Shown here: one piece after another, positions 800-50,035 of the stretch
Position numbering within the stretch: the stretch's first letter is position 1
How the letters are laid out: the number at the start of each line of letters is the position of its first letter
Source of the DNA: a phage
Sequence record: PX667085.1
Length of the DNA stretch: 64,000 nucleotides
Direction: 5' to 3' (one strand)
The notes under the pieces: generated by a model
Seen by the model: only the letters and a program-made list of their open reading frames with translations
Told to the model about the DNA's origin: nothing
Databases searched by the model: none
Translations under genes and position numbers: made by a program

Positions 800-2578
800 G
801 TGTCGCACATTATAACTAAATATGGATTTGATGTTGATCTTAGCAAGGAAGGGCATACAGGTTGTCCGCGCTGCATGAAAAATGGCAAGGATCGCTCTCG
901 TAATAACCTGATGGTTTATGGATTAGATTCTAATGGAGAGCATAAAGGTGCTAAGTGCTTTGCGTGTGAATACACTATTCCTAGCGTAGAATGGTTACGA
1001 GAAAATGGTGAAGTTTTAGAAGAAGAGGAGGAGATTGTGGGTTCGGAATTTAATAAACAGATTCATCGTAAAATTGTTCAAGAAACATCAACCAACCCAC
1101 GTGGTTATCGAGGAATTAAAGAAAAAGTTTCATCTTTCTATGGTGTTCGTTATGAATACCGTCAGGAAGGGGATCAGATGGTAGTAGAAAGTTGTTTATA
1201 TCCGACTACTATCGGTAAAGAATTGGTTGGTTTTAAGCGTCGTATTCATCCTAAAGATTTCAGTAAACCTATTGGTCAAGTAGGTAAAGATGTAGATCTT
1301 TTTGGACAAATTCGTTTTGCAGACCGTTCTCATACTGTGGTAATTACAGGTGGTGAACACGATGCTCTGGCAGCTTATCAAATGCTATCTGAAAACTTGG
1401 ACAACAAGTATGAACTTCCAGCAGTAGTTAGTGGCACAACTGGTGAAACCAGTATGTATAAACAAGTTCAGGCACAATATCCTTTCTTTGAAAAATTTAA
1501 GAAGATTATTGTTTGCATGGATAATGACAAAGCAGGTAATGAAGCATTTGAAAATATTGTTAAGGTGCTGCCTCGTAACAAAGTCTACCGTATGCAGATG
1601 GATCTTAAGGATGCCAATCAGTATCTGGAAGAAGGTCGTGCAAAAGATTTCGTAAAAGCTTTTTGGAGTGCTCGTCTATACACCCCAGCAGGTGTTTATG
1701 CTTCTAATGTCTTGTATGAAGCTGCATTAGAATGCTTGGAATCCAAGATGATTACCTTGCCTCCTTTTATGCGTGTAGCTGCAAACATGCTGGGTGGTGG
1801 TTTAGTAGAGGAAGAGATTACAGTCATCCTGGCAAAGACCAGTATCGGTAAAACTTTAATGGTGAACGAGATCACCAAACATATTATTGTTGCGCACCCA
1901 GAACATACCCTAGGTATCCTGTCCTTGGAAGCAACTTATAAGAAATATTCTCGTAACCTGTTGTCCTCGTTCCTGCATATTCCTCTACACAGGAAAACAC
2001 CGGAAGAGAAATTTCAAATCTTGGAAGAGAATAAAGAAAAAATCCTAGATTTTTACGAAAGAGAAGATGGATCACCACGTTTTTATGTGTGTGATGATCG
2101 TGGAGCAGATGTGGAGTCTATCAAAGAAAAAGTTTTGGAGATGATCATCTATTTTGGAGTAACAATTCTTGTTATCGACCCTTATTCTGATTTGCTTTCT
2201 GGTATGGATGTTCAAGCCCAGGAAGAGTTAGCAACATGGTTGAAGCGCATCATGAAAGAGTATGCTATAACTATTATCGTCATCTCACACGTTAAGAAAT
2301 CGGCTAATGGTGGCAATGAACACTTAACAGAGGACGATGCAATGGGTAGTAGTTTCTTGGCTAAAGGTGCTGGTATTACCTTGGCTTTGGAACGAGATAA
2401 AGCCGCTGAAGACCCTGTAGAACGCAATACGACTCATTGCTTTATCCTAAAAAACCGTGAGTTCTCGGAAACTGGTCCGGCAGGGCAGTTTTACTATGAC
2501 ATTAGAACTGCAACTCTGCATGACAAAGAGCAGTATTTCAACAATCCTGCTAATTTGCCTACGGATAGCAACTATTAA
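800..2578 (+). CDS. bifunctional DNA primase-helicase (T7 gp4-like architecture)
   Basis: GTG start after AGGAGAA; N-terminal zinc ribbon CPRCMKNGKD...CFACEY; TOPRIM-like ITGGEHDALAAYQ and CMDNDKAGNEA; DnaB-type Walker A LAKTSIGKT and Walker B ILVIDPYSDL. Confidence 0.8.
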   Translation: MSHIITKYGFDVDLSKEGHTGCPRCMKNGKDRSRNNLMVYGLDSNGEHKGAKCFACEYTIPSVEWLRENGEVLEEEEEIVGSEFNKQIHRKIVQETSTNPRGYRGIKEKVSSFYGVRYEYRQEGDQMVVESCLYPTTIGKELVGFKRRIHPKDFSKPIGQVGKDVDLFGQIRFADRSHTVVITGGEHDALAAYQMLSENLDNKYELPAVVSGTTGETSMYKQVQAQYPFFEKFKKIIVCMDNDKAGNEAFENIVKVLPRNKVYRMQMDLKDANQYLEEGRAKDFVKAFWSARLYTPAGVYASNVLYEAALECLESKMITLPPFMRVAANMLGGGLVEEEITVILAKTSIGKTLMVNEITKHIIVAHPEHTLGILSLEATYKKYSRNLLSSFLHIPLHRKTPEEKFQILEENKEKILDFYEREDGSPRFYVCDDRGADVESIKEKVLEMIIYFGVTILVIDPYSDLLSGMDVQAQEELATWLKRIMKEYAITIIVISHVKKSANGGNEHLTEDDAMGSSFLAKGAGITLALERDKAAEDPVERNTTHCFILKNREFSETGPAGQFYYDIRTATLHDKEQYFNNPANLPTDSNY

Positions 2579-3111: not shown

Positions 3112-3906
3112 TTGAGCAAGTTGAACACACTTGATCAATATTACACTAACCCCGCTTATGCGGGGTTCTTATGTGATAAGATCAAAGAAATTTTTGGAGA
3201 GGAAGCTAACTACGTAGAACCATCTGCGGGAGAAGGAGCTTTCTCTTCTTGTTTTAAAAACATAACTTCTTTTGATATTGACCCTAAGTTTGAAGATTGT
3301 ATTGAGGCAGATTTTTTAGCTCAATCTGTTGAGTCTGTTGGTAGTGTAACTGCTTTTGTCGGTAATCCTCCATTTGGAAAAAATGCTAGTCTTGCCATTA
3401 AATTCTTTAACCATTGTGCTGAAATGCTGGATAACGAAGGTGGTATTTGTTTTATCTTGCCTCGCACATTTCAAAAAATCTTTTTTGCACACAAGCTAAA
3501 TCCCCATATGCATCTTCTTTACGAAGAAGAATGTCCAAAAGGATCTTTTATTCTTCATGGAGAACCTTGGGATGTTCCTTGTGTATTCCAGGTATGGATT
3601 AAACGCAACGAGAAGCGTTCTCCCGTTGTTTTAGGAGAGAATCGACTATTCGTATTAGGTAACAGTAAAGACTACGATATAGCCGTTAGGAGAGCGGGAG
3701 CAAGTGCAGGTAAAGTGTTATCAGAAGAAGATTCTTTATCTGAAGCATCTACCTATTTTTTAAAAGCCTTGACTTCTGATCTTAAAACGCGTATCATTGA
3801 GGCTTACCCGTTACTTAAAGCTGAAGCTAGTAAAACTGCGGGAGTAAGAAGTTTAAGTTTAAAAGAACTTCAGTGGGTTCTGGAGAACATTAGAAAGGAG
3901 GAATAG
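3112..3906 (+). CDS. putative N6-adenine DNA methyltransferase
   Basis: TTG start after AAGGAGG; AdoMet motif I-like VEPSAGEGAF then catalytic motif IV GNPPFGK about 45 residues later. Confidence 0.55.
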   Translation: MSKLNTLDQYYTNPAYAGFLCDKIKEIFGEEANYVEPSAGEGAFSSCFKNITSFDIDPKFEDCIEADFLAQSVESVGSVTAFVGNPPFGKNASLAIKFFNHCAEMLDNEGGICFILPRTFQKIFFAHKLNPHMHLLYEEECPKGSFILHGEPWDVPCVFQVWIKRNEKRSPVVLGENRLFVLGNSKDYDIAVRRAGASAGKVLSEEDSLSEASTYFLKALTSDLKTRIIEAYPLLKAEASKTAGVRSLSLKELQWVLENIRKEE

Positions 3907-6503
3907 TGAGTAAGTTTACATGGGATATTGAAGCAAACGGATTGTTGAATAATGACACTATTGATTATTTAGCTAGTCCTTATCGTCTCAAAGACACATT
4001 TCAAATGCACTGTATTGTCTTAGAGAACCATGAAACAGGAGAAATAGTAGCTTTCCACGATGGCCCTAAATACATCTTTGATGGGCGTCCTTACGAAGAG
4101 TCAGATGGTAAATACACATATGTTCTTAAAGAGTATGTGGCGCAAGATTACACACATTTTCAACTAAAAGATTTCCCAGATTTTATTAATCATGAAGGTT
4201 ATTTTAAAGACAAGCCTGAATATCTAGTTGAAATGGCTGTGGCTCACAACGGTATCAACTACGACTGGTTGGCTACAAAACTGTTTTATGGATTAGATTA
4301 CAGTGTTAAATATAATACGTGGGGCAAAAATAAGGTAAAACTTATTGACTCCTTGATTTTGAGTAAAGTGTTAAACCCAGATCGAAAGATTGAGGGCAAA
4401 TCAGGACATAGCTTGGCAGCACTTTCTCGAAAAGCAGGTGGTGATGTAAAAATAGATTTCCGTAAAGAGATTCCAGAAGAAGATCGATTTAAGACTTTTG
4501 CTGCGGATATGCTTTATTACTGTATCTATGACAACAAAGCCAATACGAGCGTATATAATTACCTTATGGAAGAATGGGGTGATTATGATAAATGGGAAGG
4601 TCCATTTGAACTTGAACAACGTGTAGCAGACATTATTACACGCCAGGAACACCGTGGGTTTGCTTTTAACATGAAACAAGCAGAAGAGAACCTTGCTTTT
4701 TTGGATGCAGAAATGGAGCGTCTTCGTTTACTCGTTGAGCCTATTTTGCCACCTAAACCAGCAACAAAAGGTTATCTTAAGGCTTTTATTCCACCTAAGT
4801 TGCAAATTAAAAAGAACTTAGAGCCAACTAACCATATGATCAATTTTGCTAAGAAACATGATGGTCATTTGGAAGAGAGGGATGGCGATTGGTGGTTAGT
4901 TATGTTGGGGAAAGAGTGGAAACTGCCAGTTGCAGCAGATGAGCCTCTATGTGATCCTAACATTCCTGCAACATTGAACGATACAACCCATATTAAAAAC
5001 TGGCTTGTAGGATTAGGTTGGGTACCGTCTGAATATAAAGATAAAGACTTGACGCTTAAATCTGGCACCAAAATTAAAAAGAGCGAGGAAGAACTTCAGA
5101 AAGGTATTAGAGCTTACGTTGAGCAAACTCTATCTTCTAATTTTTGTCAGGATCGTTGTGATCATCTGGAGTGCACACCGGAAACTTTGGAAAGGAAGAT
5201 TCAAGAGCGTATAGCAAAAGGTAAAGGTCGCGGTCTTAAAGTATTGACTAACCCGTGTTTTACCAAAGGTCAGGAAAAAGAAATTTGTCCTAACCTGCAA
5301 GCTTTGGGTGAGAAGTTTCCTTATGCTACACAGATTGTAGAATACTTAACGTATAAGCATCGTAGGAACTCTATTTTAGGTGGCGGTGCTGATTGGGAAG
5401 AAGATGAAGAAGATCAAGAATACGATAAAGGTTTCTTAGCCGCAGTAAGGGCAGATGGTCGTATTCCTACCCCAGCCGCTACATGTGATGCTGCAACTTC
5501 TCGTATGAAGCACAGATCTGTAGCTAATATTCCTCGTGTCACATCTTTGTTTGGATGGGAGATGCGTAACTTGTTTGGTGTAGAGGTTCCTAAATACTTC
5601 CAGATTGGCTACGACTTCGACTCTTTAGAAGCAAAAATTGAATCGCATTACTGTTGGCGGTACGAGCCGGAGCCACACGAATATTGTAACGCTCTGTTGT
5701 TAGAGAAACCTAATGATGTTCACACAATGATGGCAAAACGTATCACTGAAACTATTGGACGCAAATTTGAACGTAGTCCTGCTAAATCTGTTAAGTATGG
5801 TATTACCTATGGTGCACAAGCCGACAAGGTTGCTAAAACAATTGGTAGTGATAAGTTTACAGGTCAGTTGGTGTTCGATGCTTTCTGGGAAGCTGCGTTC
5901 CCATTGGCGCGTCTTAAAGAACGTTTAAACGATTTCTGGGTTAAGACTGGTAAACAATATGTTTTAGGTATTGACGGTCGTAAGGTTCCTACTCGTTCTG
6001 CTCACGCGATTCTTAACTCTCTGTTCCAAAGCGGTGGGGTTATCTGTGCTAAACGTGCAATGGTTATTTATGACGATATGATCGAAGAAGAAGGACTAAG
6101 TGTTGACTTCTTTAAAGATGACTGGAAGAATAAAGACTTCGTGCAACAAATGATTGCATATCACGATGAAGCCCAGCTTGAAGTTTCTCGTAACCTTGTA
6201 GAATTCAAATGGTTTTCACCGGAATCATTAGGTTGGAAGAAAGTAGACGATCCTGAAGAACAAAAGAAAATTGATAAAGAATGCCTTGCTAAAGTTGAAG
6301 AATGGAAGCATAATAAGGAAAAAGAGACAGGGCAAATTTGGGCTAACATTCATGAATCTCCCAAAGGTGGATGGTTTACAGCTTATAGTCGGGCAGGTGA
6401 ACTTGCTGCTTTAGCTGTTACTAAGGCTGGAGAATTTTACAATCTTAACGTTCAGCTTACTGCCGGATATGATGTGGGTAATTCCTGGGCGTCTTGTCAC
6501 TAG
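3906..6503 (+). CDS. DNA polymerase, family A, with 3'-5' exonuclease domain
   Basis: Exo motifs DIEANGL, HNGINYDW, YCIYDNKA; polymerase motif A DFDSLEAKI, motif B RSPAKSVKYGITYG, motif C YHDEAQLEV. Confidence 0.85.
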   Translation: MSKFTWDIEANGLLNNDTIDYLASPYRLKDTFQMHCIVLENHETGEIVAFHDGPKYIFDGRPYEESDGKYTYVLKEYVAQDYTHFQLKDFPDFINHEGYFKDKPEYLVEMAVAHNGINYDWLATKLFYGLDYSVKYNTWGKNKVKLIDSLILSKVLNPDRKIEGKSGHSLAALSRKAGGDVKIDFRKEIPEEDRFKTFAADMLYYCIYDNKANTSVYNYLMEEWGDYDKWEGPFELEQRVADIITRQEHRGFAFNMKQAEENLAFLDAEMERLRLLVEPILPPKPATKGYLKAFIPPKLQIKKNLEPTNHMINFAKKHDGHLEERDGDWWLVMLGKEWKLPVAADEPLCDPNIPATLNDTTHIKNWLVGLGWVPSEYKDKDLTLKSGTKIKKSEEELQKGIRAYVEQTLSSNFCQDRCDHLECTPETLERKIQERIAKGKGRGLKVLTNPCFTKGQEKEICPNLQALGEKFPYATQIVEYLTYKHRRNSILGGGADWEEDEEDQEYDKGFLAAVRADGRIPTPAATCDAATSRMKHRSVANIPRVTSLFGWEMRNLFGVEVPKYFQIGYDFDSLEAKIESHYCWRYEPEPHEYCNALLLEKPNDVHTMMAKRITETIGRKFERSPAKSVKYGITYGAQADKVAKTIGSDKFTGQLVFDAFWEAAFPLARLKERLNDFWVKTGKQYVLGIDGRKVPTRSAHAILNSLFQSGGVICAKRAMVIYDDMIEEEGLSVDFFKDDWKNKDFVQQMIAYHDEAQLEVSRNLVEFKWFSPESLGWKKVDDPEEQKKIDKECLAKVEEWKHNKEKETGQIWANIHESPKGGWFTAYSRAGELAALAVTKAGEFYNLNVQLTAGYDVGNSWASCH

Positions 6504-6520
6504 TTAACTCATTGTTTTAT

Positions 6521-6542
6521 AAGGGGCTTCTGCCCCTTTATA
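6521..6542 (+). terminator. possible weak terminator after DNA polymerase
   Basis: AGGGGCTTCTGCCCCT hairpin followed by TTATAGG (short T tract). Confidence 0.35.
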
Positions 6543-6551
6543 GGAGGAGAT

Positions 6552-6743
6552 ATGCATTACGATTTAGATTGTCTTGGTATGCCTTACCTACCAGATGAAT
6601 TTGAAGGTGAAGAAGAACGTGAATGGGACGATGGGGATATCCGTTGTTGGTCTTGTGGTAAAGATATGTCTTATGAACAACATATGCACAATGATGGTTT
6701 CTGCATACATTGTTATAATGAAATTGATCTGGAGGAAGATTAA
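6552..6743 (+). CDS. small acidic zinc-ribbon protein
   Basis: 63 aa; CWSCG...CIHC cysteine pairs; very acidic; SD AGGAGGAGA upstream. Confidence 0.4.
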   Translation: MHYDLDCLGMPYLPDEFEGEEEREWDDGDIRCWSCGKDMSYEQHMHNDGFCIHCYNEIDLEED

Positions 6744-6910
6744 TGGGAAATGGTATCATGATTTGCTATAAAATTGTGCGTATTGTCGGAGACGAAATTA
6801 CCACTCGGTATTTTATGATAGAGTCTCAAGCCGATGAGGTTTACAATGACTGGCTTGAAAAAGGTGGATACGATTTTGTATCTAAAGAAACTTTCCGTTT
6901 AGAAGTATAA
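6743..6910 (+). CDS. small hypothetical protein (55 aa, below track cutoff)
   Basis: ATG at 6743 overlaps upstream stop as TAATG; translated by eye MGNGIMICYKIV...FRLEV. Confidence 0.3.
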   Translation: MGNGIMICYKIVRIVGDEITTRYFMIESQADEVYNDWLEKGGYDFVSKETFRLEV

Positions 6911-6920
6911 GGAGAAAACA

Positions 6921-7139
6921 ATGCGTAAATTAGTGAGCTTTAATGTTTCAATTCTTGTTGATGAACAAAATGAAGATGTTATTAAAGGTCTTGCAAATAA
7001 GATTGCAGGTGGAATGACGGAAGCTGAAGTGTGGGAAGAATGTGCTCGACTTTATGAGGAAGGTGTTATTGAGGTCTTGGGGGATGAGATTAATATGGAC
7101 GATGTTGTAAAAGTAACTGTGGAGCGTATCAATGACTAA
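6921..7139 (+). CDS. hypothetical protein
   Basis: 72 aa ORF with SD AAGGAGAAAA upstream. Confidence 0.35.
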   Translation: MRKLVSFNVSILVDEQNEDVIKGLANKIAGGMTEAEVWEECARLYEEGVIEVLGDEINMDDVVKVTVERIND

Positions 7140-7725
7140 ATCAAAACAAATCAATATTGCCAAAGAAATTCTTACCGTATTAAAGATCGCTGATCCTAAT
7201 TCTGTCTTGGCTGGCGGTGCTGTTCGTGATTGGCGTATTCTTGATATTGCTGGACGTGATCTGGATTTCTATACATCCCTTCCTGCACATCGGACTGAAG
7301 AACAAATACAAGGATTAATTGCATCTGCTTTAATGGGAACCAATATTCGTAAACTAGGAAACAAAGAGGCTTCTGACAATTATGAAGGTGTTACTGGTCT
7401 TAAACACGTTTTTGAGTTTGAACGTGATGGTCAGCTTTGCAACCTTATGATTATGGAACCAAGCGTAATGACAACCTTTCTAAATGAGTTCGATCTGTCC
7501 ATCTGCCAGGCTGCATTTGATGGGAAGGATTGTTATTATTCTAAAGATTTTGAAACAACCTTGGAAACAGGGATCTGCTTCTTGCACAAAGACGTTAGAG
7601 AAGATGCCAAACACGTTATTAAAATTGCTACACGTTTCCCATATCTTCGTTTTGTGAAAGAGGTTAAGGTTCCACGTCCACCTCAAGTAGATACCAGATT
7701 GGAAGAAGATGATATTCCTTGGTAA
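7132..7725 (+). CDS. Pol-beta-superfamily nucleotidyltransferase, CCA-adding/poly(A)-polymerase head-like
   Basis: LAGGAVRDWRILDIAGRDLDFY = GGxVRD plus DxD signature; only 197 aa (head domain size); C-terminus EEDDIPW. Confidence 0.55.
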   Translation: MTKSKQINIAKEILTVLKIADPNSVLAGGAVRDWRILDIAGRDLDFYTSLPAHRTEEQIQGLIASALMGTNIRKLGNKEASDNYEGVTGLKHVFEFERDGQLCNLMIMEPSVMTTFLNEFDLSICQAAFDGKDCYYSKDFETTLETGICFLHKDVREDAKHVIKIATRFPYLRFVKEVKVPRPPQVDTRLEEDDIPW

Positions 7726-7732
7726 TTAAAGC

Positions 7733-7762
7733 TTGACAATATTAAACATTTTATGATAGGAT
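7733..7762 (+). promoter_or_regulatory. putative promoter TTGACA-N18-TAGGAT
   Basis: TTGACA at 7733-7738; weak -10 candidates TATGAT/TAGGAT; precedes 7771 ORF. Confidence 0.35.
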
Positions 7763-7770
7763 AGCATTCA

Positions 7771-8163
7771 ATGACTGAACGTTCTAAGATAGCTGTTGAA
7801 ACTGTTTATGGAAACTATACCAGTTTGACACTAGTTGAGAAAAATGTTGTAGGTCTTGACAACTCTTTTTATTTTCAAATTTTGGTTATTCAAGGTGGAA
7901 ACAAGAAGCTAACTGCTCGTGTTGAAACATCTGAAATAATTGAAACCACTGTTACAAACAAAGAATTCATTTCACTGCAAGATACAATCCGAAACGTTAT
8001 AGACGAAGAAGGCAAAGCTGCCACAATTAAACTCGGAGGTTTCCCAGTGCAAATAGTTCATTTTCCTAATGGTGAAATTGGAGTTGGAATAGGTAAAGGT
8101 AAATACCTGTTAGAGCAAGATGATATGGAAAGACTCCGTTCTTTCTGTGCAAAATTAATGTAA
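7771..8163 (+). CDS. hypothetical protein
   Basis: 130 aa ORF, no motif recognised. Confidence 0.4.
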   Translation: MTERSKIAVETVYGNYTSLTLVEKNVVGLDNSFYFQILVIQGGNKKLTARVETSEIIETTVTNKEFISLQDTIRNVIDEEGKAATIKLGGFPVQIVHFPNGEIGVGIGKGKYLLEQDDMERLRSFCAKLM

Positions 8164-8179
8164 TGTAGAGGAGATAATA

Positions 8180-9067
8180 ATGTCCGTAATTAATACTGAA
8201 ACTGATCGTAAAGGCAAAACCGTAACTTATGCAACTGGTATCGTAGACTACGTTAAACTGGATAAATTCGCTGAACCTAAAACTTTTCATTGGGAAGGAA
8301 AAACGATTGTTTCAACTCACCGAGCTTCTCTTGTTCTGAAAGAGAAAGGTGCTAAACCAGATGAGAAAGGTGTTTGGATTTCTCTTGGTGACATTGAACT
8401 GAAAGAAGGTTATGAAAACCTGCAAGTCAAAGAAGGTGATAATTGGATCACTATTGAAAAAGGTGTAGAAGTAAGTATTGATATTGATCGCGTTGATAAT
8501 AAAGGCGGTAAAACTTACTACAATACTAAAAAATCTCGTATTACAGTATTGTCTACCGATGGTGTTCAGAAGTCTAACAAATCTTCTGGCAATAAAGGTT
8601 CCAACGATGCTGCTCCTAAGCAATCCTATAAAAAACGTGATACTGTAGGTCTGGAAACTGGTCACGCAGTAAATGGTGCACTGGAACTGATTCGTAATGG
8701 TGTTAAAGGCGATGCTTTCGATATCGCTGGGGTTGTTCAATCTGCAACTGTCACGCTGAAATCGGAAATTGCTGAATCTCGTGGCGTTGATATTAATGAT
8801 TATGATCTTGGGGCATCTGTTGGTCACGCTATTCTTAATGCTTGTAAAGACCATACCATTAAGACTGTATCTGTAGAAGATCTGATTGACTCTGCTCGTA
8901 AAGTTCTAGCTCTGTCTGATAAAGTTGCTGCTGCCATTCGTGGTTCCGCAGAACAACCTAAGAAAGAAGAGAAGAAAGAAGTTAAAAAGCCTGAACCACA
9001 ACCAGAACCAACTCCAAGCAATCAAGAAGAACCTCCAATGGACTTCGATGATGATATTCCATTCTGA
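8180..9067 (+). CDS. single-stranded DNA-binding protein (SSB-like)
   Basis: C-terminus PMDFDDDIPF matches the canonical acidic SSB tail; low-complexity linker PKKEEKKEVKKPEPQPEP before the tail; sits in replication block. Confidence 0.6.
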   Translation: MSVINTETDRKGKTVTYATGIVDYVKLDKFAEPKTFHWEGKTIVSTHRASLVLKEKGAKPDEKGVWISLGDIELKEGYENLQVKEGDNWITIEKGVEVSIDIDRVDNKGGKTYYNTKKSRITVLSTDGVQKSNKSSGNKGSNDAAPKQSYKKRDTVGLETGHAVNGALELIRNGVKGDAFDIAGVVQSATVTLKSEIAESRGVDINDYDLGASVGHAILNACKDHTIKTVSVEDLIDSARKVLALSDKVAAAIRGSAEQPKKEEKKEVKKPEPQPEPTPSNQEEPPMDFDDDIPF

Positions 9068-9101
9068 TCTTATTGATTTATAAAGAGTTTTTATAAAAGA
9101 A

Positions 9102-9130
9102 AAGGGAACCTTTGCGGGTTCCCTTTTTTA
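9102..9130. terminator. bidirectional terminator between convergent blocks
   Basis: GGGAACC-TTTGCG-GGTTCCC hairpin flanked by A/T tracts on both sides (AAAAGAAAA upstream, TTTTTTATT downstream). Confidence 0.6.
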
Positions 9131-31600: not shown

Positions 31601-32302
31601 TTAACCTCCGTTGTTTGTTGGGGTATTAGTAGCTTCAGCAGTTCTTACTGTAATATCTGACTTAGGACCATTCGAAGCAACTTGACCTTTCACATCACCA
31701 CCAGTCGATTTATTTGGTGCTGTTTTTACAGCAATAGCATTAGTAGTGGCCTTAGAAACGAGACGGATTTGTTCAAACTCTAAATCAAATTGCATAGCAA
31801 ATTCAGATTTATAATCATAAGAGTAGCCTTTGAGAATAACATTTTCAAAAGTCCTGTGTTCTGTCAAAAGAACTATTGGTTGTCTTGACTCAAATATTTG
31901 ATCTAGATATTCTATTGCTTGAGAAATCCTTGCCCCATTTACACCTGCACTGTATAATTGATCTCGCATAAGCCGAATTGGTGTTTCGGTAATTATACCT
32001 GAAAGTTTAAATCTGTTGTTTTTTATTTGAACGTGGTCACTTACATCCGATCCTGATTCTACTGGAAAACTTGTAACATCTGCCTCACGAGTTACACCTA
32101 CTTCAGGGACCGAATCGAAAGTAATTGCTTTAAAGTTTTGAATGTATTGATCACTTGAACTATTATAAACACTTGCTAAAATGCAGAAACCATTATCACC
32201 CTTTACAGTAGATGCCGAGGTATTTTTATTCTCGGTAGAGTTGATTTCCTGTTCTGCCTTATAGACGGCTCTCACCGACTGTTGTGGAGTCATTGCTGCC
32301 AT
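31601..32302 (-). CDS. tail structural protein
   Basis: 233 aa ORF directly downstream of tape measure gene. Confidence 0.3.
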   Translation of the reverse strand: MAAMTPQQSVRAVYKAEQEINSTENKNTSASTVKGDNGFCILASVYNSSSDQYIQNFKAITFDSVPEVGVTREADVTSFPVESGSDVSDHVQIKNNRFKLSGIITETPIRLMRDQLYSAGVNGARISQAIEYLDQIFESRQPIVLLTEHRTFENVILKGYSYDYKSEFAMQFDLEFEQIRLVSKATTNAIAVKTAPNKSTGGDVKGQVASNGPKSDITVRTAEATNTPTNNGG

Positions 32303-32395
32303 GATAACCTCGTAGTAATGATAATGCCAAAAGGAAGATGCAAGATCTTCCCATATTGATTATTGTAACACATATAGAAACTTCGTGTCAAGGGA

Positions 32396-48110: not shown

Positions 48111-48189
48111 TGGAGGCGGGAATTGGATTTGAACCAATGATCTCCAGCATATGAAACTGGCGAGGACGACCAGACTCCTCTATCCCGCT
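48111..48189 (-). tRNA. tRNA-Met (anticodon CAT)
   Basis: CCA encoded; T-arm ATTGG-ATTTGAA-CCAAT; anticodon loop TTCATAT; 11-nt D-loop; A1-C72 mismatch. Confidence 0.55.
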
Positions 48190-48195
48190 ATTAGG

Positions 48196-48265
48196 TATCC
48201 CGTGCTGGATTCGAACCAGCATCACAATAAGTTGTGGAACTCTTATCCTGTAAGTCTAACGGGAA
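48196..48265 (-). tRNA. tRNA-like element, possibly degenerate
   Basis: clean T-arm GCTGG-ATTCGAA-CCAGC and 6-bp acceptor, but only 70 nt, no CCA, anticodon arm would need a 10-nt loop. Confidence 0.3.
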
Positions 48266-48267
48266 AT

Positions 48268-48341
48268 TGGTTGTTTCGACAAGAATCGAACTTGTGTCTC
48301 ACGATTATCAGTCGTGGGTTCTACCATTGAACTACGAAACA
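48268..48341 (-). tRNA. tRNA-Ile (anticodon GAT)
   Basis: CCA encoded; 7-bp acceptor; T-arm; anticodon stem CACGA/TCGTG with loop CTGATAA. Confidence 0.7.
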
Positions 48342-48347
48342 TTAAAT

Positions 48348-48424
48348 TGGTCGGAATTGCAGGATTCGAACCTGCGACCCTACGCTCCCAAAGCGTATGC
48401 TCTACCAAACTGAGCTAAATTCCG
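48348..48424 (-). tRNA. tRNA-Pro (anticodon TGG)
   Basis: CCA encoded; 7-bp acceptor; T-arm GCAGG-ATTCGAA-CCTGC; anticodon loop TTTGGGA. Confidence 0.7.
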
Positions 48425-48429
48425 TTATA

Positions 48430-48505
48430 TGGCTGGTCTGTCTGGATTTGAACCAAACCTACGACAGTCAAAGTGTCGTGTGCTACCTGACTACACTACA
48501 AACCA
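48430..48505 (-). tRNA. tRNA-Gln (anticodon TTG)
   Basis: CCA encoded; acceptor with one G-U pair; anticodon stem CGACA/TGTCG with loop CTTTGAC. Confidence 0.6.
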
Positions 48506-48603
48506 ATAAATCATTTAATGAAGGGCAACCAGAAGAGGTGTGAGAGAAGGAGAAAACCATGAGTAAAAGAGAAAGTTTTCTGGCAACCCTTTATTAAATA
48601 ATT

Positions 48604-48677
48604 TGGAGCGTTCTACGAGGATCGAACTCGTGCCGCCGACTTGGAAGGACGGAATGCTACCGCTACACCAAGAACGC
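48604..48677 (-). tRNA. tRNA-Gly (anticodon TCC)
   Basis: CCA encoded; perfect acceptor and T-arm ACGAG-GATCGAA-CTCGT; anticodon loop CTTCCAA; one U-U mismatch in anticodon stem. Confidence 0.55.
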
Positions 48678-48688
48678 CCTACCTCTTT

Positions 48689-48718
48689 ACTATACTACAT
48701 TTTACTATTGGTTGTCAA
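48689..48718 (-). promoter_or_regulatory. tRNA-unit promoter 1 (AACTATTGACAA motif, -10 TATAGT)
   Basis: minus-strand TTGACA at plus 48713-48718, TATAGT 18 nt downstream; directly precedes tRNA-Gly. Confidence 0.45.
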
Positions 48719-48993
48719 TAGTTTTATTGAGTGGGACAGTGACGAGTATCCCATTGGGTGACTAGCCCTACGTTCGGTAAGCTAACTTAAAATAATACAA
48801 AACCAAAGTCAAATATTATTCTTCGTTGCTGTCGATGGGAGAGCCGCTTCTTCTTTTGCCCCATCCAACCCTACTCCGGTCAAGTTTCAGGTAACTCTTT
48901 TTGTGTGATCAACACAATACTAAGAACACTGTCTTTCGAACAGACCTTGTGCACAGGATACGACGATCAATCACAGTGCTCTTAATGTTGTGT

Positions 48994-49068
48994 TGGTGCT
49001 CCCACTCTGAATCGAACAGAGATCCACGGATTACAAAACCGTTGTAATAGCCATTATACTATAGGAGC
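48994..49068 (-). tRNA. tRNA-Thr (anticodon TGT)
   Basis: CCA encoded; T-arm CTCTG-AATCGAA-CAGAG; anticodon loop TTTGTAA. Confidence 0.6.
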
Positions 49069-49074
49069 AAAGCT

Positions 49075-49151
49075 GGGACTCGGCAGGATTCGATACCTGC
49101 AATTCCAGAAGCCTCTTGGCGACTGGGGGTTTACCTTAACTCTACAAGTCC
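49075..49151 (-). tRNA. tRNA-like element with atypical 8-nt T-loop, anticodon unresolved
   Basis: acceptor pairs (6 bp plus one G-U) and T-stem GCAGG/CCTGC present, but T-loop is TATCGAAT and no 5-7-5 anticodon arm found; no CCA. Confidence 0.3.
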
Positions 49152-49158
49152 ATAATTC

Positions 49159-49244
49159 TGGCGATGAGTATAGGATTTGAACCTATATCGTTCTTTCGAA
49201 CACGGATTAACAGTCCGCCGCTTAAACCATTCAGCCAACTCATC
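49159..49244 (-). tRNA. tRNA-Asn (anticodon GTT) with extended 15-nt variable arm
   Basis: CCA and G73; perfect acceptor; anticodon arm GCGGA-CTGTTAA-TCCGT; extra hairpin GTTC-GAAA-GAAC before T-arm; 86 nt. Confidence 0.5.
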
Positions 49245-49250
49245 TTAATT

Positions 49251-49338
49251 TGGTGGTGAGTGATGGAGTCGAACCACCCGAATCGCAATGATAACAGATT
49301 TACAGTCTGCCCCGCTACCCCTACGGAATTAACTCACC
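49251..49338 (-). tRNA. tRNA-Tyr (anticodon GTA), class II
   Basis: CCA, A73, perfect acceptor; anticodon arm CAGACTGTAAATCTG; long variable arm; 88 nt. Confidence 0.7.
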
Positions 49339-49468
49339 TAAATACTAATATTTAAATTCTTTTTAAAATAGCCAGTGTTCACACCACTAACTATGAGTTA
49401 TCGGTAAGATGGTGGAGGCCATCTGCCGAAAGTTTACTCTATTAAAGTAAGCTATATTAAAAAGAACT

Positions 49469-49554
49469 TGGCGGTAGATGTAGGACTCGAACCTACACGC
49501 CGTTTCCGACTACAGTTTAGCAAACTGTCGTGGCTACCATTTCACCAATCTACC
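49469..49554 (-). tRNA. tRNA-Ser (anticodon GCT), class II
   Basis: CCA, G73, perfect acceptor; anticodon stem ACAGT/ACTGT with loop TTGCTAA; long variable arm. Confidence 0.7.
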
Positions 49555-49558
49555 AATC

Positions 49559-49649
49559 TGGCGGAAGGAGGGAGAGTCGAACTCCCAAGGCTCTTTCAAG
49601 CTCGGCGGTTTTCAAGACCGTTTTCGTCGCCACGTCGATTTGCCCTTCC
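49559..49649 (-). tRNA. tRNA-Ser (anticodon TGA), class II
   Basis: CCA, G73; anticodon region CGGTCTTGAAAACCG; long variable arm; exact 5' boundary uncertain. Confidence 0.55.
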
Positions 49650-49657
49650 ATACTTAT

Positions 49658-49687
49658 AATCTAACATAAAATAATGTTAGTTGTCAA
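49658..49687 (-). promoter_or_regulatory. tRNA-unit promoter 2 (AACTATTGACAA motif)
   Basis: minus-strand TTGACA at plus 49682-49687, -10 candidate TAGATT; directly precedes tRNA-Ser(TGA). Confidence 0.4.
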
Positions 49688-49883
49688 TAGTTTTTTAAAA
49701 CATTTTACCATGAATGGTGACTCCACCAACCCCCGTTCTCAACGAACGGTGCTCTTCGAGCATTTATGTCTTCTAATATAACCGTGGCCTTTGTTTATAA
49801 TGTCTGACATACTTGCCTCATTCTCTGCCACCATGATCAGTAGTGGGTTCAAATCACTTGAGCTAATTCATGTTAAAATGTTC

Positions 49884-49958
49884 TGGTGTCTTTACAAGGA
49901 ATCGAACCTTGACTAAGAGTTTAGAAGACTCCTGTGCTATCCATTACACCATAAAGAC
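49884..49958 (-). tRNA. tRNA-Arg (anticodon TCT)
   Basis: CCA, perfect acceptor, T-arm CAAGG-AATCGAA-CCTTG; anticodon loop CTTCTAA. Confidence 0.7.
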
Positions 49959-49960
49959 GT

Positions 49961-50035
49961 TGGTGGCCCTGGCTGGTTTCGATCCAGCTACCTATCGGTT
50001 ATGAGCCGACAGCTCTCCCATTGAGCTACAGGGCC
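49961..50035 (-). tRNA. tRNA with anticodon CAT (Met or lysidine-type Ile)
   Basis: CCA, perfect acceptor; anticodon loop CTCATAA; T-loop reads ATCGAAA (A at position 54). Confidence 0.6.

Follow-up and report, generated by a model that had tools for sequence, protein, structure and literature searches.

A small Gad2-related nucleotidyltransferase with an SSB-tail-like tip in the replication module of phAPEC8-like phages

Bacillus phage SPbetaL7 counters Gabija with Gad2 (Gabija anti-defence 2), a protein of 400 amino acids (aa); when the gene is knocked out the phage is sensitive to Gabija, a homologue from a Brevibacillus prophage blocks Gabija on co-expression, and AlphaFold predicts a nucleotidyltransferase (NTase) domain within the protein (10.1101/2023.05.01.538930). 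The mechanism of Gad2 was still listed as unknown in a review of February 2026 (PMC12904381). Here we describe a shorter phage protein that, judged by its sequence, is a distant relative of the Gad2 NTase domain. It is encoded at 7132..7725 on the plus strand of a 64,000-nucleotide stretch of the phage record PX667085.1 (hereafter, the window). The explanation that we favour, and to which we give an even chance, is a Gad2-related NTase that is tethered by its C-terminal tail at the replisome or at a hub formed around SSB, the protein that binds single-stranded DNA, extends 3' ends there and plausibly serves in counter-defence. Within this explanation, the fold, the catalytic motifs, the family membership, the gene neighbourhood and the conservation of the tail are the parts that the data show.

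The open reading frame (ORF) starts with an ATG placed 7 nucleotides (nt) after a GGAG, overlaps by 8 nt with a small ORF just upstream and, stop codon included, encodes 197 aa. Through megablast, region 6500-9100 of the window matched 72 phage records, 66 of the 72 at an identity of at least 95%. The matched records come from phAPEC8-like phages of Escherichia, which measure about 150 kb and belong to the genus Phapecoctavirus, and the ORF is the orthologue of phAPEC8 gp083, the name used below. GenBank labels for its orthologues range from "nucleotidyltransferase" and "putative tRNA nucleotidyl transferase / poly(A) polymerase" to "hypothetical protein". The protein carries GGAVRD at residues 28-33 and RDLDFY at residues 42-47, and it ends in TRLEEDDIPW.

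In sequence, gp083 is closest to the NTase domains of the anti-Gabija proteins of the Gad2 type and not to the enzymes that add CCA to tRNA 3' ends. When 1.84 billion cluster representatives were searched with a profile, 1045 relatives emerged at E <= 1e-3, the majority of them 170-230 aa long, and a word-indexed search with a 69-sequence alignment of these yielded 161 further proteins. This large, phage-specific family occurs in phages of Escherichia, Klebsiella and Vibrio, among others, with ICP1 among them. About half of the homologues returned in the word-indexed and locus tables carried a precomputed match to Pfam PF26128, 'Gad2', some of these matches being marked weak; one such protein was P0009, a DDIPW-tailed relative with 60% identity. 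NCBIfam contains no Gad2 model. We took the sequences of Gad2 homologues from Supplementary Table 10 of the preprint (10.1101/2023.05.01.538930) and aligned the family with them using hhalign. The probability was 97.1% against seven Gad2 homologues (E 7e-11; 115 columns, query 19-152 and Gad2 22-139) and 91.5% against the verified Brevibacillus homologue alone. By contrast, the comparison with E. coli Cca alone reached a probability of 10% over 21 columns, which covered motif A only. The family and Gad2 have two signatures in common, AGG...[ND]D.D.YF and FD[FL][ST][IV]C..AFD. Both proteins are phage-borne, they have a homologous NTase head, and many members of the gp083 family are labelled PF26128. 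Gad2 differs in that it is about 400 aa long, twice the length of gp083, in that it lacks an SSB-like tip, and in that it has ITS where the gp083 family has an invariant R-D-W.

An initial AlphaFold2 model of gp083 built on 12 sequences had a predicted local distance difference test score (pLDDT) of 65 and gave meaningless fold matches; it was superseded by a model built on a 122-sequence alignment, with a pLDDT of 88.9 and a predicted template modelling (pTM) score of 0.83. In that model residues 1-176 (7132..7659, plus strand) are folded, forming a head of the type seen in class-II CCA-adding enzymes and poly(A) polymerase (PAP) together with the start of the neck. The last approximately 20 residues are of low confidence and are predicted to be disordered (mean pLDDT of 63 and then 47 in the final two ten-residue blocks). 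When we compared the model with PDB structures using Foldseek, the top 31 matches were all class-II tRNA nucleotidyltransferases or E. coli PAP, with E values from 1.2e-5 to 3e-3 and template modelling scores of about 0.5-0.56 on the query; the best structural matches include PDB 1miv, 3h37, 3wfs, 4wby and 3aql. A single-sequence phmmer search of PDB with the NTase returned only noise. The catalytic core lies in motif A (residues 27-47, AGGAVRDWRILDIAGRDLDFY; 7210..7272, plus strand), which aligned to motif A of CCA enzymes and contains the GG loop and the catalytic residues D43 and D45. A27, G28, G29, A30, R32, W34, D43 and D45 are invariant in the 122-member family alignment.

These comparisons bear on whether gp083 could be a minimal NTase (MNT) of toxin-antitoxin (TA) type, such as the partner of a HEPN protein, an AbiEii protein or a MenT-like enzyme, a possibility that the sequence-only reading had proposed to separate from the CCA/PAP type by a profile search. 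The fold comparison placed the modelled head with the class-II CCA/PAP type and not with the MNTs: the class-II matches ranked clearly higher, the fold comparison scores for other classes being 7.8 for Pol X, 7.3 for MenT1 and 6.2 for the MNT-like TM1012. PADLOC returned no match for the NTase, no HEPN or antitoxin gene adjoins it, and it sits inside a replication operon. We therefore rejected a TA-type MNT identity, which we hold to be exceedingly improbable. Since both the PADLOC match and the HEPN or antitoxin neighbour are missing, an assignment to TA MNTs does not stand in the way of the sequence-only reading.

Two statements of that reading, that the product carries the class-II tRNA NTase head signature and that it has about half the length of a CCA enzyme, were borne out: GGAVRD and RDLDFY are present, Foldseek agrees, and 197 aa correspond to 48% of E. 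coli Cca (412 aa). Its functional proposal was a phage enzyme that makes or repairs tRNA 3' ends and is perhaps recruited by its tail. Such a minimal enzyme would restore CCA on phage or host tRNAs, for example on two tRNA-like elements that lack it or on tRNAs that host defences have trimmed. This proposal fared worse, and we consider it quite unlikely. The nearest solved folds are indeed CCA-adding enzymes and PAP, and motif A is a textbook GGxVRD ... DxD on a Pol-beta-type fold. The tRNA-holding body and tail domains of a full enzyme of about 400 aa, however, are absent, the fold of gp083 stopping at approximately residue 176, and the sequence kinship with class-II CCA/PAP enzymes is confined to motif A. 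When the family profile was compared with PDB sequences, only residues 5-45 aligned to CCA enzymes. The Pfam model PolyA_pol (PF01743) gave gp083 13.9 bits (E 0.07), below its gathering cut-off of 23, and only 9 of 69 family members reached E <= 0.01 with it; the CCA models of NCBIfam matched gp083 only at E 0.04. A head domain of this kind standing alone has been solved before, in NP_344798.1 (PDB 2la3), a 191-aa protein described as a 'CCA-adding enzyme head domain'; it differs in that it was not among the PDB profile-search matches of the gp083 family, and no SSB-like tip was noted on it.

Aligned by eye, gp083 appears collinear with E. coli Cca through motif D, with segments that resemble motifs B, C and D. 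The motif-B-like segment (residues 117-130, LNEFDLSICQAAFD; 7480..7521, plus strand) would pair gp083 LNEFDLSICQAAF with Cca LKRRDLTINALAQ, gp083 KDFETTLETGICFLH would pair with Cca GDLQNRLLRHV, and the motif-D-like helix (residues 157-170, EDAKHVIKIATRFP; 7600..7641, plus strand) would place gp083 EDAKHVIKIATRF opposite Cca EDPLRVLRVARF. In this alignment the RRD of motif B is replaced by EFD in gp083 (segment N-E-F-D). The family consensus at motif B is x-F-[P/S/D], with no conserved Arg and with an invariant Phe/Met at the position of the second Arg, and the segment in gp083 also matches Gad2 FDFTVCMGAFD. Where EDxxR is expected in motif D, gp083 has EDAKH...RF; it thus keeps ED...RF itself, a point in favour of CCA repair, but the E, D and R of the template are not conserved in the 122 homologues, in which E157 and D158 vary and Tyr or His stands where Arg would be expected. 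The only conserved positions of this helix are [H/Y]161, K164, [K/R]168, F169 and P170. Conversely, R32, D33 (in 121 of 122), W34 and Y84 are family-specific invariants without counterparts in the CCA motifs. Because the body and tail domains are missing, RRD is lost, EDxxR is unconserved in the family and PolyA_pol stays below its cut-off, gp083 is not a standard CCA-adding enzyme.

The evidence that the tRNA genes of the window offered for a dedicated CCA enzyme of the phage was weak. ARAGORN found ten tRNAs in the array, and Rfam added 49254-49338 and 49563-49649 (both on the minus strand) for a total of 12; one of these two scored 39 bits on the tRNA model, and the other, which is long-armed, matched the tRNA-Sec model below its cut-off. 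An encoded CCA follows all 12 recognisable tRNAs, these two included. The sequence-only reading had pointed to two tRNA-like genes without CCA, at 48196-48265 and 49075-49151 (minus strand). Both do lack an encoded CCA and have a 7-bp acceptor stem and a T arm. Their D and anticodon arms are aberrant; ARAGORN did not call them as tRNA, and nor did Rfam (E <= 1). The presence of a 12-tRNA array and of two CCA-less elements in the phage speaks for CCA repair, as does the fact that cleavage of tRNA 3' tails is a known immune strategy, reported for Cas12a3 (PMC12851939). The case is weak nonetheless, since the 12 tRNAs encode CCA, the two odd elements go unrecognised and the E. coli host has its own Cca. 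In addition, the NTase gene lies in the replisome operon, approximately 40 kb from the tRNA array, and a tRNA gene occurred within 8 kb of a family NTase in only 7 of 60 loci. In the 47-kb partial genome record of Vibrio phage 1.253.O, in which the family member adjoins a 5'-3' exonuclease gene, ARAGORN found no tRNA gene at all. Taking the missing domains, the lost motif B, the closer kinship with Gad2, the replisome locus and the 12 CCA-encoding tRNAs together, tRNA CCA maturation is less likely than a role at the replisome.

The gene neighbourhood links the family to DNA replication. In the window the order is primase-helicase (800..2578), a 143-aa ORF, Dam methylase, the family-A DNA polymerase PolA (3906..6503), three small ORFs, the NTase gene, a 130-aa ORF (7771..8163) and an SSB-like gene (8180..9067), with the primase-helicase, PolA, NTase, 130-aa and SSB-like genes all on the plus strand. 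A strong promoter-like site at 2609-2637 matches a promoter annotated in phAPEC8, and the first terminator-like site after it is a hairpin at 9100-9127, with none earlier. We then examined 76 IMG/VR loci with a family member at 22-38% identity to the query, some of which are near-duplicates. In 51 of the 76 loci a primase-helicase homologue lay within 8 kb, and in 38 a PolA homologue did, the strand being the same in nearly every case; a primase-helicase or PolA gene lay no more than approximately 170 bp from the NTase gene in about 20 of the 76. Among the 42 contigs of at least 40 kb, 27 had a primase-helicase within 8 kb against 8.6 expected, the count of 27 being reached in none of 200,000 random placements, and 19 of the 42 had PolA within 8 kb, which 38 of 200,000 simulations matched. 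The placement of the family in replication modules, beside primase-helicase or PolA and not beside tRNA genes, is therefore conserved across diverse phages, and the usual position of the gene is between those for the primase-helicase and the DNA polymerase.

This linkage also bears on whether gp083 is an RNA-tailing poly(A) or oligo(N) polymerase that marks host mRNAs or RNA primers for decay or modifies other RNA, which we consider distinctly improbable. The protein has no RNA-binding extension, and the conserved linkage is to DNA replication genes and not to RNA metabolism. A toxic NTase was compared here, Gp22 of Klebsiella phage fHe-Kpn01 (Drulisvirus), a 182-aa minimal class-II-like NTase that is reported to be toxic in E. 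coli and whose gene directly follows PolA with a 4-nt overlap (L084 7894-8442). Gp22 has only motif A in common with the gp083 family (hhalign probability 58%, 28 columns); this comparison covered fHe-Kpn01 Gp22, with Emajogi gp22 outside it. We rejected Gp22 as a family member because the alignment is limited to motif A, and it represents a separate minimal-NTase lineage. Small NTases beside family-A polymerases thus seem to have arisen more than once.

The second distinctive feature of gp083 is its acidic-aromatic C-terminal tip, EEDDIPW (residues 191-197; 7702..7722, plus strand), which the sequence-only reading had likened to the SSB tail encoded two ORFs downstream. The likeness was confirmed: the 295-aa SSB-like protein ends in PPMDFDDDIPF (tip at 9038-9064), an E. 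coli-type SSB C-terminal tail (SSB-Ct), the peptide with which SSB recruits its partners, and the gp083 tip is conserved and preceded by a disordered linker. Measured against the SSB-Ct rule of an acidic run with an [IL]-P-F end, the tip fits in its extreme C-terminal position and in D-D-I-P, and its terminal residue is Trp. Its conservation extends to each of the ten relatives with 59-98% identity, nine of which have DDIPW and one DDSFPW. The 10-15 residues preceding it vary in sequence and length among the same ten relatives; in gp083 this variable linker corresponds to residues 177-190 (7660..7701, plus strand), which have low pLDDT and are predicted to be disordered. A conserved tip on a variable linker indicates that selection acts on the tail and that it did not arise by chance. 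When every stop-to-stop ORF of at least 50 aa in the window was scanned, SSB-type tails appeared on the NTase, on the SSB-like protein and on one 59-aa ORF (32180-32359) with the end KIFPY; the last of the three looks spurious, which leaves two real ORFs with such a tail.

Tethering of this kind has a precedent in T7, where gp2.5 and gp4 use acidic tails with a terminal Phe to dock on the family-A polymerase. Compared with the E. coli SSB tip (MDFDDDIPF), the tip of gp083 is similarly placed at the extreme C-terminus, is acidic, has an I-P-aromatic end and follows a disordered linker, and it is encoded in the same operon as an SSB-like protein bearing the canonical tip. It differs in that it sits on an enzyme and not on a protein that binds single-stranded DNA (ssDNA), in that it ends in Trp and in that its acidic run is shorter. 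The SSB-like protein itself is a member of phrog_4477; only its last approximately 40 residues matched E. coli-type SSB models, and Pfam recognised no OB/SSB domain in it; its presumed ssDNA binding is taken from annotation.

Acidic SSB tails, as known for E. coli SSB and T7 gp2.5, compete with ssDNA for basic clefts, a property that fits the possibility that the tail is the business end of gp083 and catalysis is secondary. The protein would then act as a decoy that fills host SSB-tail pockets, or the tail would fold back as an autoinhibitory pseudo-substrate. Within the C-terminal third of gp083, no part is more conserved than the tip. Against this, the GG and DxD residues are invariant in all 122 aligned members, most of which have no such tail, and a monomeric decoy would be a poor competitor against tetrameric SSB. 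We regard this alternative as highly improbable.

Tips of related kinds occur elsewhere in the family. Sister clades at 34-38% identity (Justusliebigvirus and relatives) retain the order NTase, 130-aa ORF and SSB-like gene, and their SSB-like proteins end in DFDDD[IV]PF. Among distant members, IP[WF] tips are found on P0016 (PDDIPW), P0121 (NDIPW), P0159 (DDGIPF) and the protein of locus L032 (NNIPF), and most of the 257 collected family members have no such tip. We did not find the loci of P0016, P0121 and P0159 in viral contigs, nor that of P0016 in metagenome contigs. The neighbours of family NTases that bear such tails did not match Pfam SSB, and PHROGs identified some of those in other loci as T7 Gp2.5-like SSBs (phrog_112). 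Trp-ended SSB-like tips were also present on phrog_862 proteins of about 225-245 aa encoded near family NTases in unrelated phage contigs, namely DGDDVPW (L022 727-1416), DKDIPW (L028 5134-5805) and GEDTPW (L037 7807-8544). The recurrence of tips in sister and distant members points to a C-terminal docking peptide as a recurrent add-on to the catalytic core.

Taken as a working mechanism, gp083 would be an active template-independent NTase consisting of a class-II head and only the first neck helix, cotranscribed with the phage replisome genes. Its DDIPW tip would dock the enzyme on surfaces that receive SSB tails, whether these belong to the polymerase or helicase of the phage or to host proteins that interact with SSB, and docking would place the catalytic head at ssDNA and replication intermediates. 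There the enzyme would extend a nucleic-acid 3' end by nucleotide addition, most plausibly in order to shield the replicating phage from surveillance by the host, in the way that Gad2 counters Gabija. We infer tail docking, the substrate and the counter-defence role from the features described above; as a speculation, the loss of the ribose-sensing RRD is compatible with the use of deoxynucleoside triphosphates. A more specific version, which we judge unlikely as stated, is that DDIPW is a genuine SSB-tail mimic that plugs a Gad2-family NTase into the SSB hub of the phage replisome or of host SSB partners, where the 3' ends of replication intermediates or genome ends would be modified so that Gabija and related defences that sense DNA ends or ssDNA are not triggered.

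Several observations weigh against the tethered, Gad2-like enzyme proposed here. Pairwise BLAST between gp083 and Gad2 was not significant, and the C-terminal approximately 230 residues of Gad2 have no counterpart in gp083; on both grounds gp083 is a shorter protein that is distantly related to the Gad2 NTase domain, and it is not an orthologue. P0001, the cluster representative 98% identical to gp083, has no recorded PF26128 match. Gad2 is encoded in a dedicated anti-defence locus, gp083 in a replication module. At E95, where the third catalytic carboxylate would lie, only 55% of the 122 members have an acidic residue. The tip of the NTase ends in Trp where the canonical SSB tip ends in Phe, and the NTases of Justusliebigvirus-type clades end in other acidic or aromatic tips after Pro-rich linkers (LDEAWDECF, LPDFLDEI and ESPDVFNF). 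As these tips differ despite neighbours ending in DFDDD[IV]PF, exact imitation of the SSB-Ct is lineage-specific and confined to Phapecoctavirus and phiWec-like phages.

The gene, its generic annotation and the Pfam name of its family are already known. The placement of phAPEC8 gp083 and approximately 1000 mini-NTase clusters as Gad2 relatives, the systematic tie of the mini-NTase family to replisome genes and the presence of an SSB-Ct-like tip on an enzyme appear to be new. Full-text literature searches found no paper that deals with gp083, with PF26128 or with SSB-Ct mimics occurring naturally on enzymes, and none on the Gad2 kinship, the replisome tie or an enzyme-borne SSB-Ct tip. A very large set of phage NTases of about 190 aa (1045 clusters) is now placed beside the validated anti-Gabija protein Gad2, and the vague label "nucleotidyltransferase" gives way to a concrete hypothesis, that of an end-modifying enzyme tethered at the replication fork. 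The result also argues against spreading "tRNA nucleotidyltransferase / poly(A) polymerase" as a label in databases. Should the tail bind the pockets of SSB partners, gp083 would be a natural SSB-Ct mimic carried by an enzyme; if the SSB-hub explanation is true, it would be the first natural enzyme to borrow the SSB-Ct peptide and would offer the first mechanistic handle on Gad2-type enzymes.

The conserved 130-aa ORF between the NTase and SSB-like genes belongs to phrog_16560 and has no Pfam match. Its position is kept in all the related large-myovirus loci examined that reach far enough downstream (L003-L007 and L009), and L081 has a 132-aa ORF in the same place; a partnership of its product with the NTase or the SSB-like protein is possible.

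Among longer family members, we rejected P0079 (400 aa) as Gad2 itself, as it had no Bacillus phage matches and its NTase domain is C-terminal. The N- or C-terminal extensions of ten longer members contained no Pfam domains, so that domain fusions give no functional clue. At the other extreme, Vibrio phage ICP1 encodes a shorter member, ORF223, of about 137 aa, which matches query residues 4-127 (L023 7956-8369). The match spans two annotated ORFs in many isolates, which suggests a split or truncated gene.

Records labelled as Acinetobacter, Campylobacter and Pseudomonas phages (hits H4 and H62) are approximately 99% identical to E. coli phapecoctaviruses over region 6500-9100, and their host labels look doubtful. 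Finally, the tRNA array (48111-50035) contains tRNAs for Thr(UGU), Gly(UCC), Met(CAU), present twice, and Pro(UGG). It thereby covers four of the five tRNAs that the P2 OLD tRNase is reported to prefer as targets (10.64898/2026.07.10.737580); the array may supply replacement tRNAs against an OLD-type defence.

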